From the IMG/VR virus record IMGVR_UViG_3300031555_003626, positions 169,330 through 233,329 of that record: a stretch of 64,000 nt of DNA; one strand, written 5' to 3'. This document shows, piece by piece, positions 16,457 to 27,368 of the stretch (positions within the stretch are counted from its first letter, which is position 1; each line of letters begins with the position of its first letter). The notes under the pieces are model-generated. The model ran no database searches. It was not told the origin of the DNA and saw only the letters and a program-made list of their open reading frames with translations. This DNA comes from a virus (Duplodnaviria; Caudoviricetes). The translations under genes were made by a program, and so were the position numbers.

Positions 16457-17383
16457 ATGGCTAAGTTGATTATTTTATGTGGGCTTCCTGGAAGTGGAAA
16501 GAGCTATTATGCTGCCCAGCTATGGCGAAGAGAAAACACCTTTGATGAGCCTACTGCAGTAGTACACTCTTCAGATGCTATAAGAAAAGAACTTTTCGGC
16601 GATGCAGGCTCGCAGGAAAATAATGCTCTTGTATTTGAGACTATGCATAAGAGAGTAAAGGACGACCTTAGAGCAGGTAAGACTGTAATTTATGATGCAA
16701 CTAATATTACTCGAAAGTCTCGTCGTGGAATAATCAATATGACTACTAAAGACGATATTGTTGAGTGCCATATTGTTTGGGCGCCTGTTGATACTTGTAT
16801 TAAGCGAGATGCCAAGCGCGAGCGCCACGTAGGTAGAGAAGTAATTGATAAGATGATTCGTCGTTGGCAGAGCCCACATAAGTCTGAAGGTTTTACTTGT
16901 ATCGATGTTATCTGCTCAGACCCTAACTTTGATCAGACTAAGTACGTAGCAATGCAGGCTGACCAAATGCATATACCCCATGACAACCCCCATCACACTC
17001 TTGGTGTTTGGGATCATTGTATGCAGGCTTATTACTATCTTTGCCAGCAGCCTAATATCAATGATGACCTGAAGACTGCTACAATGTGGCATGATATCGG
17101 AAAGCCTTATACTAAATCGTGGCATATCGATAAAGTAAACGGAGCAGTAGATTATTCACACGCTCATTATTATGATCATCATTGTGTTGGCGGCTATCTT
17201 GCTTACGGACTTTTCTTACATAAGGATTTTGATGAGGAAGATGTAGACTTTATGTGTTGGGTGAGCTGGCTTATCTGCAATCACATGGAGCCTTTCTTTA
17301 ACTCTCATTGGTATAGAGAACTTCCTGAGCACTTGAAGCAGCCTATTGATATATTGCATGCCGCTGACGTTTCTGCACATTAA
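16457..17383 (+). CDS. Polynucleotide kinase (AAA_33 P-loop) fused to HD phosphohydrolase; probable RNA end-healing enzyme
   Basis: Walker A 'GLPGSGKS', 'SSDAIRKEL', 'DATN', then 'HH...H', 'HDIGKP', 'HY..H', 'H.AD..AH' HD motifs. Confidence 0.8.
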   Translation: MAKLIILCGLPGSGKSYYAAQLWRRENTFDEPTAVVHSSDAIRKELFGDAGSQENNALVFETMHKRVKDDLRAGKTVIYDATNITRKSRRGIINMTTKDDIVECHIVWAPVDTCIKRDAKRERHVGREVIDKMIRRWQSPHKSEGFTCIDVICSDPNFDQTKYVAMQADQMHIPHDNPHHTLGVWDHCMQAYYYLCQQPNINDDLKTATMWHDIGKPYTKSWHIDKVNGAVDYSHAHYYDHHCVGGYLAYGLFLHKDFDEEDVDFMCWVSWLICNHMEPFFNSHWYRELPEHLKQPIDILHAADVSAH

Positions 17384-17434
17384 CATAAATTTTAATAAAA
17401 TAACATTATAATGTTAAAATTACAAAAATAATAT

Positions 17435-17447
17435 TGTATAATATAAT
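17435..17447 (+). promoter_or_regulatory. Extended -10-type promoter (Y)GTATAATATAAT, representative copy
   Basis: Recurs upstream of early/replication genes and RNAs (e.g. ~13197, 19701, 19867, 21993, 24118, 26866, 38652, 43566, 44005, 46931, 54015, 57590, 58659). Confidence 0.65.
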
Positions 17448-17475
17448 GTGAGTGCAGAGCGCAGCATTCACAAAT

Positions 17476-17533
17476 AGAGCCTATACTTATTTCTAACATA
17501 AATTTTGGGAATTTAAAAGTTGACAGTTAGGCC
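17476..17533 (+). ncRNA. Y-RNA-like family member 1 (short AU-rich loop)
   Basis: AGAGCCTA-T-ACTTATTTCT...AGTTAGGC; terminal stem GCCUA-(U)-ACU/AGU-UAGGC; promoter TGTATAATATAAT at 17435. Confidence 0.65.
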
Positions 17534-17634
17534 AAAATTGAGATACTACTTTATTATAAGGCGGTGGCTTATTTTGGTTTAGATCAAAAAGCTACCGTTA
17601 TTTTATTTTGATTTTATTTAAAAGGAGATACATT

Positions 17635-19614
17635 ATGACTACTATTCAGAAGATTCTTATTTCTCGTCGTATGCTTGTAGCAGATACTATTCCTACTAAG
17701 TCTGCTTTTAGACTTGAGGGCGCATATCTTAATGCGTTTCTTCTCGCTAACTTTGGTATTGTTGTAGATAAGCCTGAACTTCTTACTAAGGAAATGGTAA
17801 AGGACATCTCTGATGTTTATAAGCTTAACGTACCTAAGTCTTATTTCGCAAATCCTCAGGATACTAAGTTCTATACTGCTGAAGAGCTTCTTATAGAGCA
17901 GTGTATCTCTTATTTCCTTGCTTATGGTGCGGAGGATTCTCATGTTCACATTTTTGATAAGGAGCTTCCTGAGTACCCTGTAGGTGAGGAGATCAAGATT
18001 CGTGAGTTCCGTATTCTTGACGCCGACGAAGCAGAAGCCGAGCTTATGGAGATTACTAAGGCTTATGCTGCTTATAAGCGCCCTTGGGGCCTTGATGAGG
18101 CAGCAGAGTTCCTTGAGCTCTACAAGAATGGCTATTACAGATTTACCGAGATGCCTGTAAACTGTGGCGACAACGCTGTTCTTATGCTCGGTGAGAACAC
18201 TGATTTCGCACAGTTTCTCTTTAAGAAGGACGTTGTAAAGCTTTCTGTAGCTCGTTGTGGCGAGAAGAAGGAACTTTCTCTTGATGGCGCTACTCGTGGC
18301 CTTATCAAGGCAATTATTCCTCTCGTTAAGGACTGTCCTATGTCTAAGAAGCAGGCAAAGTATTTCAATACTCTTGTCAAGCTTACCGGTTCTAAGGTAA
18401 AGAAGGCTTCTAATGAGGCATCTCCTAATAGACTTGCTCTTGAAAAGTTGAATGCTGGTGACGTTGTTGGTGCTGCAAAGATTTTTGCAAAGAGTGGTTC
18501 TCTTCTTGAGAGAAATCTTAAGTTCCTTCTTTCTCGTGCAAATCCTAGGGAGGCAATACAGATTCTCGACATGCTTTCTAATGAGAACCCTGCTGTTCTT
18601 TATCAGATAATGTCTACTGTTCTTGCTGACAACGAGGAGGCTCGTACCTTCTCCTTCTACGCAAAAAATAGAATTAAGACTCATATTGAGACTGAGTACG
18701 AGGCTCGTTGGAGAAAGTCCAGACTTAATGACGCAACTAAGAAGCTTGTACACGATATGTGCTTTGAGAAGATTGCTGAGCATTATGTAAACACTGAGTC
18801 TCTCCGTAAGGTTTACATCGCTCCTAATTTCTATAAGGTAGCAATGCCTGTTAATACTTCTGCCTCTGGTAAGGGTATCGACGTTCCTGCTACCGGAACT
18901 AGACTTCCTATCAACGGCACTAAGATCAGATCTTTCGTACATTGGGAGAATGCTTTCGATATTGACTCCTCTACTATCTACGAGTTTGGCGATGGCTCTC
19001 TCAAGATGATTAATTTTTGCAGTTATAATTACGAGAACTTCGATGGCGCTGCTCGCTTCTCAGGTGATATTACTGGTCCTAAGGGTACTGAGTATTTCGA
19101 CCTTGACCTTGAGTCTCTTAAGGAACAGGGTGTAAAAAGAGTAGTATTTACCTTCCATGGTTATTGTTCTACTCTTGACTCCGGCGAGATTTATTGCGGT
19201 TACCAGAACAAGAATAACTTCAATACTAAGGCCTGGGATCCTAAGAACATTGAGCTTAAGATTCACGTTAAGGGTGAGAAGCGTGCCTATGTGGCATTTG
19301 CTATCGATCTTGAGACTATGGAGATTATAGTACTCAACCTGATGCGCGATGATGACTCTCGAGTTGTTTCGCCTAAGGACTTTGAGGCTATTAAGGCTTT
19401 CATGGATCCTGCAAAGCTTGAACTCAATATGGGTCTTATTGCTGAGTGGCGTGCAGCTGAGGTTGTTGAGACCCCTGAAGAGGCCACTGTTATCTTCTCG
19501 GATGACTATGTTGTAAAGGAAGTGGAATTGGCAGAGAATGAGGTACCTGTACCTGCTCCTGTAGTAATCCGTTCCTTCGATATTGAGAAGCTTAACATGA
19601 TTGCAAACGTTTAA
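17635..19614 (+). CDS. Large helical protein with C-terminal TerD-like domain (candidate Ro60-analogue RNA-binding protein)
   Basis: ATG 17635 after AAAGGAG; C-terminal 'FVHW...DIDSS...FSGDI....GTEYFDLDL' TerD-like signature; flanked by ncRNA family members. Confidence 0.6.
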   Translation: MTTIQKILISRRMLVADTIPTKSAFRLEGAYLNAFLLANFGIVVDKPELLTKEMVKDISDVYKLNVPKSYFANPQDTKFYTAEELLIEQCISYFLAYGAEDSHVHIFDKELPEYPVGEEIKIREFRILDADEAEAELMEITKAYAAYKRPWGLDEAAEFLELYKNGYYRFTEMPVNCGDNAVLMLGENTDFAQFLFKKDVVKLSVARCGEKKELSLDGATRGLIKAIIPLVKDCPMSKKQAKYFNTLVKLTGSKVKKASNEASPNRLALEKLNAGDVVGAAKIFAKSGSLLERNLKFLLSRANPREAIQILDMLSNENPAVLYQIMSTVLADNEEARTFSFYAKNRIKTHIETEYEARWRKSRLNDATKKLVHDMCFEKIAEHYVNTESLRKVYIAPNFYKVAMPVNTSASGKGIDVPATGTRLPINGTKIRSFVHWENAFDIDSSTIYEFGDGSLKMINFCSYNYENFDGAARFSGDITGPKGTEYFDLDLESLKEQGVKRVVFTFHGYCSTLDSGEIYCGYQNKNNFNTKAWDPKNIELKIHVKGEKRAYVAFAIDLETMEIIVLNLMRDDDSRVVSPKDFEAIKAFMDPAKLELNMGLIAEWRAAEVVETPEEATVIFSDDYVVKEVELAENEVPVPAPVVIRSFDIEKLNMIANV

Positions 19615-19715
19615 TTAAAATAACTGGGCGTTAATTAATTTTAGCGCCCATAATAAAAAAAATATTTTGCTAAATTAATTAAAAATTACGTTTATTATAT
19701 CGTATAATATAATAC

Positions 19716-19828
19716 AGAGCCAATGCTTATTTCTTTGCCTGTTAAGCCGTGTGTCGCAGGTTCGAATCCTGCCATCCCGCTGCAGTGGGATGTAGCTCAG
19801 TGGTAGAGCAACGATTATTAGCTTGGCC
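19716..19828 (+). ncRNA. Y-RNA-like family member 2 carrying circularly permuted tRNA-Asn(GUU)-like module
   Basis: Conserved ends GCCAA-T-GCT/AGC-TTGGC; inside CTGTTAA, T arm GCAGG-TTCGAAT-CCTGC, acceptor CATCCCGC-TGCA-GTGGGATG, D arm GCTC-AGTGGTA-GAGC; own promoter at 19701. Confidence 0.75.
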
Positions 19829-26840: not shown

Positions 26841-26905
26841 ATAATTTAAATTTCAAAATAAATATCGTATAATATAATATATAAATTTATTAGGAGATAC
26901 TTAGG

Positions 26906-27097
26906 ATGACACAGTTTCAGTTTGATTTGATTTGTAAGGTTATTGAGGGTGGCGCACCTGCTCTTGCGAATGAGCTTTGCGGTGCTTTAGATAGTCTTGT
27001 TCAGTCTTATAATGAAATCGTAAAAGAAAATGCTGATCTCAAAATTCAGCTTGAGGCTATAAACGCTTCTTCTGAAGCAGCAGAAGCTACCGACTAA
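26906..27097 (+). CDS. Small coiled-coil hypothetical protein
   Basis: Promoter CGTATAATATAAT and AGGAG RBS. Confidence 0.55.
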   Translation: MTQFQFDLICKVIEGGAPALANELCGALDSLVQSYNEIVKENADLKIQLEAINASSEAAEATD

Positions 27098-27115
27098 ATT
27101 ACAGTAAATAATTTT

Positions 27116-27172
27116 AGAGCTTGTACTTATTTCTTTGAAATATAATTGATATTTAATACAAACAGTCAAGCC
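27116..27172 (+). ncRNA. Y-RNA-like family member 5
   Basis: AGAGCTTG-T-ACTTATTTCT...AGTCAAGC (compensatory changes relative to other copies). Confidence 0.65.
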
Positions 27173-27195
27173 AAGTTATTTGCTAAATTTAATAT

Positions 27196-27298
27196 AGAGC
27201 TCGCGCTTATTTCTACTAACAAAAAGACTTCGGCCGGGTATGTGGACTTCCGTCCTGGAAGTTTGCAGGTAACCTGGCATACATATTATAGTCGAGCC
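27196..27298 (+). ncRNA. Y-RNA-like family member 6 with three-way-junction cargo
   Basis: AGAGCTCG-C-GCTTATTTCT...AGTCGAGC; inner GTATGT/GCATAC stem with two hairpins; TGCTAAATT motif at 27181. Confidence 0.65.
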
Positions 27299-27309
27299 AA
27301 TTTTTAATG

Positions 27310-27368
27310 AGAGCCTATGCTTATTTCTCACATTATTTAGGATAATAGAAAGTATGGATAGCTAGGCC
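27310..27368 (+). ncRNA. Y-RNA-like family member 7
   Basis: AGAGCCTA-T-GCTTATTTCT...AGCTAGGC. Confidence 0.65.

Follow-up and report, generated by a model that had tools for sequence, protein, structure and literature searches.

The seven RNA elements and the 659-aa protein P0001 described here suggest a relative of the Ro60/Y-RNA particle that has not been described before. Both are located in the window, a stretch of 64,000 nucleotides that comprises positions 169330–233329 of the 233,329-bp genome of a giant phage. In our preferred reading, to which we assign a probability of roughly 0.6, Y-RNA-like RNAs with a common terminal handle and P0001 would form a ribonucleoprotein on the plan of Ro60 and its Y RNAs, which presents parts of tRNAs for their protection or repair.

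A family of RNAs with a shared handle

A scan of the entire genome with a regular expression combining the 5' motif with its closing complement identifies exactly seven closed sites, all in the window, on the plus strand and at the positions where such elements had been predicted (Table 1); the five partial 5' motifs found elsewhere in the genome all lack a closing strand. The handle follows the consensus AGA-[5 bp]-bulged base-[RCU]-UAUUUCU ... AGY-[5 bp]-C. As originally described, its terminal stems covary in all seven copies, with 5-bp pairings of the type GCCTA/TAGGC, GCCAA/TTGGC (in two copies), ACCAA/TTGGT, GCTTG/CAAGC and GCTCG/CGAGC, an inner stem that is either ACT/AGT or GCT/AGC and one G-U pair in the stem of copy 6. 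The window contains 10 instances of the 9-mer CTTATTTCT compared to 1.8 expected.

Table 1. Features of the handle RNA locus (window positions).
Feature	Position	Strand	Characteristics
Polynucleotide-kinase-like gene, 308 aa	16457..17383	+	N-terminal P-loop kinase, C-terminal HD-type domain
Handle RNA copy 1	17476..17533	+	covariance model 69.3 bits, E 6.5e-14
Strong hairpin followed by U-run, terminator/attenuator candidate	17561..17609	+	between copy 1 and start codon
Partner protein P0001 gene, 659 aa	17635..19614	+	AF2 pLDDT 95.3, pTM 0.93
Handle RNA copy 2	19716..19828	+	covariance model R1, E 6.3e-7; YrlA 43 bits
Handle RNA copy 3	19882..19999	+	R1, E 6.1e-8; YrlA 24 bits
Handle RNA copy 4	20009..20122	+	R1, E 5.6e-7; YrlA 31.9 bits
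Handle RNA copy 5	27116..27172	+	covariance model 66.1 bits
Handle RNA copy 6	27196..27298	+	covariance model 29.5 bits, E 1.4e-4
Handle RNA copy 7	27310..27368	+	covariance model 54 bits

These elements are also recovered by a de novo covariance model, which was trained on 42 short elements including three of the seven found in the window. Its application to the window yields exactly seven matches with E-values between 6.5e-14 and 1.4e-4, the next match having an E-value of 0.44, and the four copies with long cargo, which were not part of the training set, are matched over the full length of the model. Within the 42 short elements, double changes are found at six of eight stem pairs compared to at most two of eight in slid registers, a count that is based on elements selected for pairing. 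Across 76 elements, the bases AGA, RCUUAUUUCU and AGY-C of the handle are conserved, while the 5-bp stem varies freely and occurs in 22 types. In loci anchored on the protein, a closing strand accompanies 43 of 59 CTTATTTCT sites, without exception on the strand of the gene, compared to 2% in shuffled sequences, and about 75 chance matches to the pattern in IMG/VR are devoid of a closing strand.

The claim that several copies are preceded by their own promoter is supported for copies 1, 2 and 3 but not for copies 4, 6 and 7. Promoter-like −10 boxes are located ahead of copies 1 and 2, the latter as part of a promoter-like site at 19679–19708, and one precedes copy 3 by sequence. Copies 4, 6 and 7 closely trail the preceding copy (with 9 nt between the end of copy 3 and the start of copy 4) and have no promoter of their own; they must be cut from longer transcripts.

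Linkage of the RNA family to a protein family

The RNA family is tightly linked to the family of P0001 in phages and bacteria. In each of the 13 related phage loci (protein identity 48–79%), handle copies surround the gene, and most of these loci contain a copy with the stem GCCTA/TAGGC of copy 1 just upstream of the gene; in the window, copy 1 precedes the gene by about 100 nt. In five of six related phages examined, tRNA arrays abut the module. Handle clusters that were found by pattern alone reside for the most part on contigs encoding the protein; in G003, a complete phage of 230 kb, a single handle is located 700 nt from the contig end and no protein is detectable. Among 74 loci of Clostridia, 61 contain one to four closed handle elements in the 600 nt ahead of the gene and on the same strand, with 116 elements in this upstream zone compared to 3 elsewhere, and 13 contain no element under the search pattern used. 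The bacterial handle is a variant of the form AGCUA-[8 bp]-UACUUC without bulge, and the handle variant largely follows the protein clade, with a bulged U and UAUUUCU being characteristic of the phage clade.

The co-location of RNAs and protein could reflect co-regulation. An alternative that we regard as unlikely assumes that the RNA family is real but not bound by the protein and that its adjacency to the gene results from co-transcription only; the handle might then serve in processing or stability, act as a leader such as a cis-acting 5' leader or attenuator of the gene, or be recognized by an RNase of the host. The invariable confinement of the bacterial elements to the gene's 5' leader would suit such a role, as would the excision of the promoterless copies from longer transcripts and the terminator-like hairpin ahead of the P0001 start codon (the fold of 17534–17634 has −22.5 kcal/mol and a z of −3.5, and the hairpin is not flagged by a consensus terminator scan). 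Conversely, copies in phages are also found downstream of the gene and at a distance of 7–9 kb inside tRNA arrays, which is not compatible with a leader acting in cis, the cargoes adopt stable tRNA-like folds of the kind usually seen in trans-acting RNAs, and the handle variant shifts together with the protein clade.

Enclosed modules and their likeness to tRNAs and YrlA

The module enclosed by the handle varies between copies, in line with the original prediction. Copies 1, 5 and 7 contain short AU-rich hairpins, whose loops resemble the anticodon loops of tRNA-Pro(UGG) in copy 1 (the 7-nt loop UUUGGGA) and of Leu(UAG) in copy 7 (UUUAGGA). Copy 5 sits within a tRNA array and copy 7 is directly followed by a tRNA-Met. 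The cargo of copy 6 is a GC-rich, nested and branched hairpin that is not tRNA-like; the related locus L097 contains a similar cargo and an orthologue of copy 5. Copies 2–4 enclose permuted tRNA bodies, the one in copy 2 retaining an entire anticodon arm of the Asn(GUU) type. In copy 3 the handle is inserted 5' of the anticodon loop, leaving UGGGG single-stranded, and the body of copy 4 is without anticodon loop, corresponding to the classical YrlA topology. Across the family, anticodon-like hairpins are found in 41 of 76 cargoes compared to 5.5 ± 2.2 in shuffled sequences, with the underlying pattern also fitting T loops, which account for 15 of the 41. Near-identical tRNA bodies bear GUU, GCU or UUU, some relatives enclose a tRNA of normal order, and many cargoes consist of a T arm alone, an anticodon hairpin alone or nothing resembling a tRNA.

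Permuted tRNA genes, as known from Cyanidioschyzon merolae and archaea, have their 3' half ahead of the 5' half. This order is shared by the tRNA-bearing copies, and joining of the ends restores the anticodon arm in copy 2, which upon reversal of the permutation becomes a canonical 72-nt cloverleaf. We consider it improbable that these copies are permuted pre-tRNA genes, in which the phage kinase and ligases excise the site marked by the handle and rejoin the ends, before RNase P and RNase Z open the closed acceptor end and thereby yield working tRNAs. Such a role would be compatible with the intact arm of copy 2, with the presence of Pnk and of Rnl1- and Rnl2-like ligases in the phage and with the normal-order tRNAs in some relatives. 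It is at odds with the restoration of a full anticodon arm in copy 2 only, the lack of an anticodon loop in copy 4 and in many relatives, and the many cargoes that contain only part of a tRNA or none, while the exchange of GUU, GCU and UUU on near-identical bodies does not fit aminoacylation identity. The architecture also differs from the C. merolae type, as an 8-bp helix with a single bulged base forms the junction instead of a bulge-helix-bulge, a loop of 4–5 nt closes the acceptor end, no CCA end is encoded and most members do not amount to complete tRNAs.

The predicted likeness to the bacterial Y RNA YrlA is borne out for copies 2–4, at scores below the threshold of the Rfam model (RF02553). 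These copies contain a permuted tRNA-like domain with T arm, closed acceptor-like stem and D arm, which is absent in copies 1, 5, 6 and 7, and align to YrlA positions 23–87 with conserved T and D loops (with 23–86 matched in copy 2 and 1–114 in copy 4). None of their scores (Table 1) reaches the gathering score of 69, and copies 1, 5, 6 and 7 do not match the model. YrlA matches of 24–46.5 bits adjoin the gene in phage and bacteria. The Ro-binding motif of YrlA, GNCGAAN0-1G in the terminal stem (PMC4201824), is absent from the handle, and the Ro-binding part of the model is unmatched.

The partner protein and the proposed particle

P0001, whose family comprises 945 clusters at 50% identity, consists of a helical N-terminal domain (about residues 1–390), a TerD-fold domain (about 427–586) and a C-terminal tail. 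It matches no Pfam family at E ≤ 0.01 and hence not the Pfam TerD model. In structure searches, its C-terminal domain aligns to the TerD chain 2qz7_B with Z 13.3 (rmsd 2.3, 145 aligned residues) and to 2kxt with Z 10.8, with Foldseek assigning a probability of 1.0 to 2kxt, 3ibz, 2qng and 2qz7, and we are thus confident that the modelled C-terminus adopts a TerD fold. The same beta-sandwich is found in the TerD proteins that Ter operons encode for tellurite resistance (PDB 2KXT, 3IBZ, 2QZ7), and a TerD-like acidic/glycine motif (SGD-TSG-GGSE-FD; DIDLS) is conserved in the P0001 family; unlike in these proteins, the TerD domain of P0001 is fused to a helical domain of 390 residues, encoded outside a Ter operon and linked to RNAs. 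Residues of about 270–605, spanning the end of the helical domain and TerD, match positions of about 390–705 of the NCBIfam profile NF041916 (MXAN_6230/SCO0854 RING domain-containing) with an E-value of 1e-18 (to 7e-31 in bacterial members), at scores far below the cut-off of 600 bits and with the N-terminal RING region of the 842-position profile unmatched. We found no literature on this family.

The original prediction had described P0001 as a Ro60 analogue with a TerD domain that is not a TROVE/vWA protein, and at the sequence level the latter part is in agreement with our analysis. No Pfam match, and hence no TROVE signal (PF05731), is found at E ≤ 10 in P0001 or the N-terminal domains (about 1–390) of 48 homologues, and the C-terminal vWA domain with its MIDAS site is replaced by TerD. 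The proposed resemblance of the segment SLLERNLKFL to ALLRNL of Ro60 finds no support, because the comparison with an alignment of 20 TROVE sequences in hhalign yields probabilities of 0.5% with full-length P0001 and 0.4% with its residues 255–350. In structure, the helical domain shows a weak but recurrent likeness to Ro60. Its longest alignments among the matches listed from 48,161 chains are to the Ro60 chains 1yvp_A (Z 6.2, 302 residues), 2nvo_A (Z 5.3, 286 residues) and 9l5y_B (Z 7.1, 208 residues), values in the chance range for helical repeats; a phage TROVE protein in BFVD matches it with probability 0.99 (E 3.6e-3), and a Foldseek search of the PDB returned nothing. What had been termed an analogue may therefore prove to be a very remote relative, and P0001 is best described as a protein that is either different from Ro60 or extremely diverged. 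That the elements are ordinary YrlA Y RNAs used by a canonical Ro60 of the host, with an unrelated protein next to them, appears scarcely credible, since despite the alignment of tRNA-like domains to YrlA, all scores stay under the gathering score, the handle differs and leaves the Ro-binding part unmatched, four of seven copies have no tRNA-like domain, and a TROVE gene is found neither in the 233-kb phage record nor in five module-bearing Clostridia (host-type) genomes and occurs in just 6 of the 301 genomes sampled from the phylum.

The predicted PNK-HD enzyme upstream of copy 1 holds as a kinase (Pfam AAA_33, E 2.2e-25; PHROG 505 polynucleotide kinase, E 6e-22), with a P-loop polynucleotide-kinase domain as in T4 Pnkp, whereas the matches to bacterial Pnkp (NCBIfam, E 1e-17, 63.5 bits compared to a cut-off of 750) and HDIG (E 4e-4) are weak. 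Only the closest relatives (L001, L002/3, L006) have this kinase-like gene immediately ahead of the gene for the protein. The Rnl1- and Rnl2-like ligases are encoded elsewhere in the phage, and RtcB is found within 3 kb in eight bacterial loci. The tRNA array of the phage and these repair genes (Pnk, Rnl1-/Rnl2-like) suggest a role of the proposed particle in tRNA protection or repair during infection.

Several features are shared with Ro60 (Rsr) and its RNAs YrlA and YrlB (Chen et al., 2014, PMC4201824), where small RNAs are likewise encoded beside the protein gene, their ends pair into a terminal stem enclosing an effector module, permuted tRNA mimics with T arm, closed acceptor stem and D arm occur among these modules, and RNA-repair genes (RtcB, Pnk) are close by. 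In both systems, the protein joins a helical domain to a C-terminal one that belongs to a metal-binding family, and phage-borne copies are known for both systems, as in case of the Ro60 of Thermus phage phiLo (PMC12135203). In contrast to YrlA, the handle has a different sequence and shape with its own conserved bases, the set of RNAs is larger, includes bare anticodon hairpins and T arms and keeps a full anticodon arm in some tRNA mimics; in contrast to Ro60, P0001 carries no TROVE sequence signal and contains TerD in place of vWA.

In the preferred reading of a particle on the Ro60/Y-RNA plan, the seven elements would be small-RNA genes built like Y RNAs, whose ends are predicted to pair into the conserved 8-bp handle with an invariant AGA at its 5' and C at its 3' side, followed by a single-stranded UAUUUCU and a variable module. 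We infer that the handle is the putative binding site of P0001, which, with its helical and possibly Ro60-like domain and TerD, would grip and stabilize the RNA ends in a ribonucleoprotein working like Ro60 and its Y RNA. The module might then show part of a tRNA, be it a whole permuted body, a T arm or a bare anticodon hairpin, to tRNA-recognizing enzymes, and the particle could act during infection as bait for anticodon nucleases of the host or as platform for repair enzymes.

More tentatively, the system may be a programmable bait kit, in which one protein holds RNAs with exchangeable tips that copy the anticodon arm, the T arm or the entire body of a tRNA and in which phages swap the three letters of the anticodon according to the nucleases and defences of the host that they encounter, or for repair by Pnk and ligases. 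If so, the exchange of GUU, GCU and UUU on the same body would soak up or misdirect an anticodon nuclease or a tRNA-targeting defence, or the RNAs would hand damaged tRNA to the Pnk and ligase repair enzymes, and the phage system would trace back to the bacterial one, a cellular ancestor serving in tRNA surveillance.

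Handle RNAs in the phage genome and in related phages

The record, with 233,329 bp, is rated complete by CheckV and thus represents a jumbo phage, of which the window covers positions 169330-233329. It had been proposed that this region harbors seven small RNAs with common paired ends, in the following termed handle (AGA, five base-pairs, a bulged base, RCU and UAUUUCU on the 5' side, closed by AGY, five base-pairs and C). A scan of the whole genome for the pattern [AG]GA-N5-N-N3-TATTTCT, followed by a complementary 8-mer within 400 nt, returns exactly these seven elements, all on the + strand, and five partial 5' motifs elsewhere in the genome, all of which lack a closing strand. 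The stems covary as originally described and the handle is retained in the minimum-energy folds of all seven copies. A covariance model of the handle (R1), trained on 42 short elements from the window and related phages with a structure confined to the eight handle pairs, detects seven matches in the 64-kb window with E-values between 6.5e-14 and 1.4e-4, among them end-to-end matches to four copies with long enclosed modules (cargoes) that were absent from the training set, while the best match beyond the seven copies has an E-value of 0.44. Rfam 15 contains no model for the handle, and a Megablast search with 16457-20140 found no match among GenBank phages.

Features of the window (positions of handle RNAs are single coordinates)
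Feature	Position	Strand	Remark
Kinase gene	16457-17383		
Handle RNA, copy 1	17476	+	loop UUUGGGA (Pro UGG with G37)
659-aa ORF (P0001)	17635-19614		
CUUAUUUCU, no closing stem	17656-17664		about 20 nt inside the P0001 coding sequence
Handle RNA, copy 2	19716	+	permuted tRNA body
Handle RNA, copy 3	19882	+	permuted tRNA body; UGGGG single-stranded beside the handle
Handle RNA, copy 4	20009	+	permuted tRNA body
tRNA array, large	~20.2-27.5 kb	+	
Rfam tRNA matches	20257-20408, 21482-21615, 22118-22313, 22532-22691	+	134-196 nt each
RAGATH-33 RNA, full-length match	22713-22823	+	sub-threshold; 43.6 bits vs gathering score 120.4; E 2.5e-6
158-aa ORF	24742-25218	+	inside tRNA array; weak HNH-endonuclease and DUF6300 matches
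GOLLD RNA	26165-26678	+	156.3 bits vs Rfam gathering score 150; within tRNA array, between two tRNA-Glu genes
YrlA-like match	26218-26363		weak (27 bits); inside GOLLD RNA
Handle RNA, copy 5	27116	+	
Handle RNA, copy 6	27196	+	GC-rich, branched, not tRNA-like
Handle RNA, copy 7	27310	+	loop UUUAGGA

Copies 1, 2 and 3 each have a TATAAT box in front of them, and copies 4, 6 and 7 must be cut out of longer transcripts. Since a strong hairpin and a U-run separate copy 1 from the ribosome-binding site of the gene encoding the partner protein P0001, this copy may be a small RNA in its own right or belong to an attenuating leader. The unclosed 9-mer within the P0001 coding sequence is also found in the protein coding sequence of close relatives (L003 10022, L004 1505 and L005 10022), and could be a coincidence arising from the conserved peptide KILIS or a site of autoregulation.

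In all 13 related phage loci, which were retrieved via the protein alone at 48-79% identity, handle copies reside on the strand of the gene. Typically, one to three handles immediately precede the gene and one to four immediately follow it, with further clusters 6-8 kb away. In the protein-anchored loci, the 9-mer CTTATTTCT occurs 59 times, and in 43 cases, all on the strand of the gene, an 8-nt complement within 300 nt closes it; shuffled downstream sequence closes the motif in 2% of cases. In the reverse direction, a pattern scan of IMG/VR returned about 75 chance matches to the 5' pattern, none with a closing strand, and full handles that were clustered. Full-handle contigs of sufficient length to judge mostly encode the protein. 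An exception is the complete 230-kb phage G003, where a search throughout the record did not detect the partner protein and whose single handle RNA (C1:681-746, L090), carrying a UUUGGGU loop, is located about 700 nt from the contig end.

Among the 76 distinct elements, stem 1 comes in 22 different pairs and stem 2 in two types, set in an invariant frame consisting of AGA (with G and A invariant), CUUAUUUCU, AG and a 3' C. An alignment of 42 sequences shows changes on both sides in six of eight pairs (44 cells), compared to at most four such cells in registers slid by one to three columns. As the aligned elements were picked for pairing, their 100% paired figure is circular, and it is the other controls, the shuffles and the reverse test, which show that closure does not occur by chance.

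tRNA-like cargoes and their genomic surroundings

The cargoes of copies 2, 3 and 4 are permuted tRNA bodies, in which the T arm is followed by an acceptor stem closed by a 4-5-nt loop and by the D arm. The anticipated likeness to the bacterial Y RNA YrlA (RF02553) holds for the tRNA-like core, to which these copies align with 43, 24 and 31.9 bits, but does not extend to a family match, whose gathering score of 69 is not reached. If un-permuted, copy 2 yields a regular cloverleaf of 72 nt, in which the ACGGC/GCCGU stem is intact and the loop CUGUUAA corresponds to Asn GUU; the handle emerges where the anticodon stem is nicked in its 5' strand. Its orthologues in relatives have a near-identical local sequence with GCU or UUU replacing GUU. 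Such an exchange of anticodon letters between close relatives on a constant body argues against aminoacylated tRNAs. Copy 4 folds as a YrlA-type mimic devoid of an anticodon; ARAGORN over-calls anticodons on rotated cargoes, and its assignment of copy 4 as Glu UUC is a trimming artefact.

Many of the short cargoes are hairpins with a 7-nt anticodon-type loop (Y-U-NNN-R-N), as in copies 1 and 7 (see table) and, among relatives, in elements with the loops CUUUUAA (Lys), CUGCAAA (Cys) and CUGCUAA (Ser). Hairpins of this type were counted in 41 of 76 cargoes, 15 of which are T loops that fit the same pattern, compared to 5.5 ± 2.2 (maximum 13) in dinucleotide shuffles. Handles also enclose tRNAs of normal order in the relatives L010 (11967-12097), L071 (682, - strand) and L007 (18338-18443), where ARAGORN calls Arg CCU and Arg UCU.

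The tRNA array itself contains further RNA features (see table). Four Rfam tRNA matches are, in light of their length, tRNA genes interrupted by large inserts, which are missed by ARAGORN, and the 158-aa ORF may encode a homing endonuclease. The neighboring kinase gene encodes, as initially proposed, a polynucleotide kinase with an HD-type domain. Rnl1-like and Rnl2-like ligases are encoded elsewhere in the phage genome, and the RNA ligase RtcB was not found in the phage record.

The partner protein

P0001 is a member of a large family, which comprises 945 clusters at 50% identity; among the PHROGs, it matches one whose function is not assigned. Pfam searches with P0001 and the N-terminal domains of 48 family members detected neither TROVE, the sequence signature of Ro60, nor TerD or any other consistent family, PADLOC returned nothing for P0001, and neither the protein nor its family profile matched PDB sequences. 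Its only named relative is the MXAN_6230/SCO0854 RING-domain family (NCBIfam NF041916), to which the match is partial. An AlphaFold2 model based on an 85-sequence alignment (pLDDT 95.3, pTM 0.93) confirms the initial TerD assignment, with residues 427-586 forming a TerD β-sandwich (Foldseek probability 1.0; VIA-align Z 13.3 and 10.8).

For the remainder of the protein, a fold search of 48,161 representative chains recovers Ro60 proteins repeatedly, at scores that are within the chance range of helical repeat proteins: Xenopus Ro60 (1yvp_A) ranks third (Z 6.2, rmsd 5.6, 302 residues aligned), Deinococcus Rsr (2nvo_A) eighth (Z 5.3, 286 aligned) and, for the N-terminal domain folded alone (pLDDT 92), Ro60 of the Thermus phage phiLo (9l5y_B) second (Z 7.1), where the alignment of 208 residues is twice as long as any other. 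BFVD contains a phage TROVE protein matching at a probability of 0.99 (E 3.6e-3), and Foldseek of the N-terminal domain against the PDB returned nothing below an E-value of 0.05. We take the recurrence of Ro60 in these lists as a genuine, though not conclusive, indication that the predicted structure contains a helical domain resembling Ro60. At the sequence level, such a relation finds no support: comparison of the family with an assembled TROVE alignment in hhalign gave a probability of 0.5% for the whole protein and 0.4% for the segment with its conserved LLxRNL, and the claimed resemblance of SLLERNLKFL to ALLRNL of Ro60 was abandoned. BFVD also contains proteins of about 700 residues that share the overall fold at 14-15% identity (Foldseek E about 1e-20), H6SUA9 of Campylobacter virus IBB35 and A0A291I9M6 of Lactobacillus phage LpeD, which, being from cultured phages, could be tractable models.

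A bacterial version and the relation to Ro60/Y RNA particles

A sub-alignment of distant family members retrieved 258 matches in bacterial genomes, almost all from gut and rumen Lachnospiraceae, Oscillospiraceae, Eubacterium and other Clostridia. Upstream of these genes we find a variant of the handle, in which AGCUA is followed by an unbulged 8-bp helix and UACUUC. Since the phage-derived R1 misses this variant (567 kb searched, no match at E ≤ 0.05), pattern and closing stem were used to count the elements. One to four closed elements are present on the same strand within 600 nt upstream in 61 of 74 loci with sufficient upstream sequence, amounting to 116 elements upstream of the gene compared to three elsewhere in about 550 kb. 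Elements commonly come in sets of two or three, in which a complete permuted tRNA mimic is joined by an RNA reduced to the T arm and by a short hairpin. The mimics again align with YrlA, with scores of up to 46.5 bits that stay below the threshold. Proteins of intermediate distance (34% identity) are accompanied by handles of the phage type in some cases and of the bacterial type in others, and the handle type thus changes with the protein lineage. The protein-handle pair is older than the phage. A distant family member of 30% identity (P0178, loci L127 and L128) carries two tandem handle RNAs and adjoins a TraG/T4SS coupling protein; the module is thus carried by conjugative elements as well. 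Genes for TROVE proteins were found in none of five module-bearing bacterial genomes and in only 6 of 301 sampled genomes of the phylum.

Across the bacterial loci the flanking genes are unrelated, except that RtcB is encoded within 3 kb in eight of them, in two on both sides. In Lachnospiraceae bacterium C6A11 (L142), two RtcB paralogues of 41% identity (936-2138 and 5434-6576) bracket the protein gene together with the three handle RNAs upstream of it, and L145 is arranged likewise. The proximity of RtcB is reminiscent of Salmonella and its rsr-yrlBA-rtcBA operon (PMC7790460, PMC4201824).

The particle of Ro60 and Y RNAs has long been studied and is best known as a human autoantigen. To our knowledge, the role of its bacterial counterpart is still unclear. 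Phage Ro60 proteins with Y-like RNAs have been described (PMC4201824, PMC12135203), and a survey of jumbo phages mentions stand-alone TerD genes separately from TROVE proteins (PMC7824862). In literature on SCO0854/MXAN_6230, on TerD with TROVE or RNA repair and on permuted-tRNA decoys, neither the system nor its protein family or handle was described, although this incomplete coverage is no proof of novelty. The handle RNAs share the anatomy of Y RNAs, with paired ends, a conserved protein-sized handle and a variable effector module, and their genes are likewise placed beside that of a helical protein of RNA-binding type. Conversely, the handle lacks the Ro-binding motif of the known Ro60/YrlA system and P0001 lacks the TROVE and vWA features of known Ro60. 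With both defining sequence features missing, we do not assign the system to Ro60/YrlA, but read it, by analogy, as one that would work in a similar manner outside that family.

From linkage, orientation, the co-variation of handle type with protein clade and the weak fold resemblance, we infer that the protein binds the handle. By a further step, cargoes that imitate parts of tRNAs and the surrounding tRNA genes and RNA-repair enzymes suggest a role in a tRNA context. Here, the cargo might act as bait for anticodon-directed enzymes or the particle might serve as platform for tRNA repair; both fit and neither is preferred.

As the module is present in several cultured strains (Eubacterium uniforme ATCC 35992, Eubacterium ruminantium FB3002 and Lachnospiraceae AC2029, AC2031 and C6A11), experiments are possible. 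If our reading holds, it would define a second RNA-protein system on the Ro60/Y RNA plan, with a different handle and a partner protein either unrelated to Ro60 or diverged beyond recognition, which is widespread in gut and rumen Clostridia and their jumbo phages. It would also assign a first RNA-linked role to the TerD fold and provide phage RNAs whose action as decoys against tRNA-cutting defences could be tested, and the design of a protein-held stem with an exchangeable tRNA-like module would have arisen or persisted more than once.
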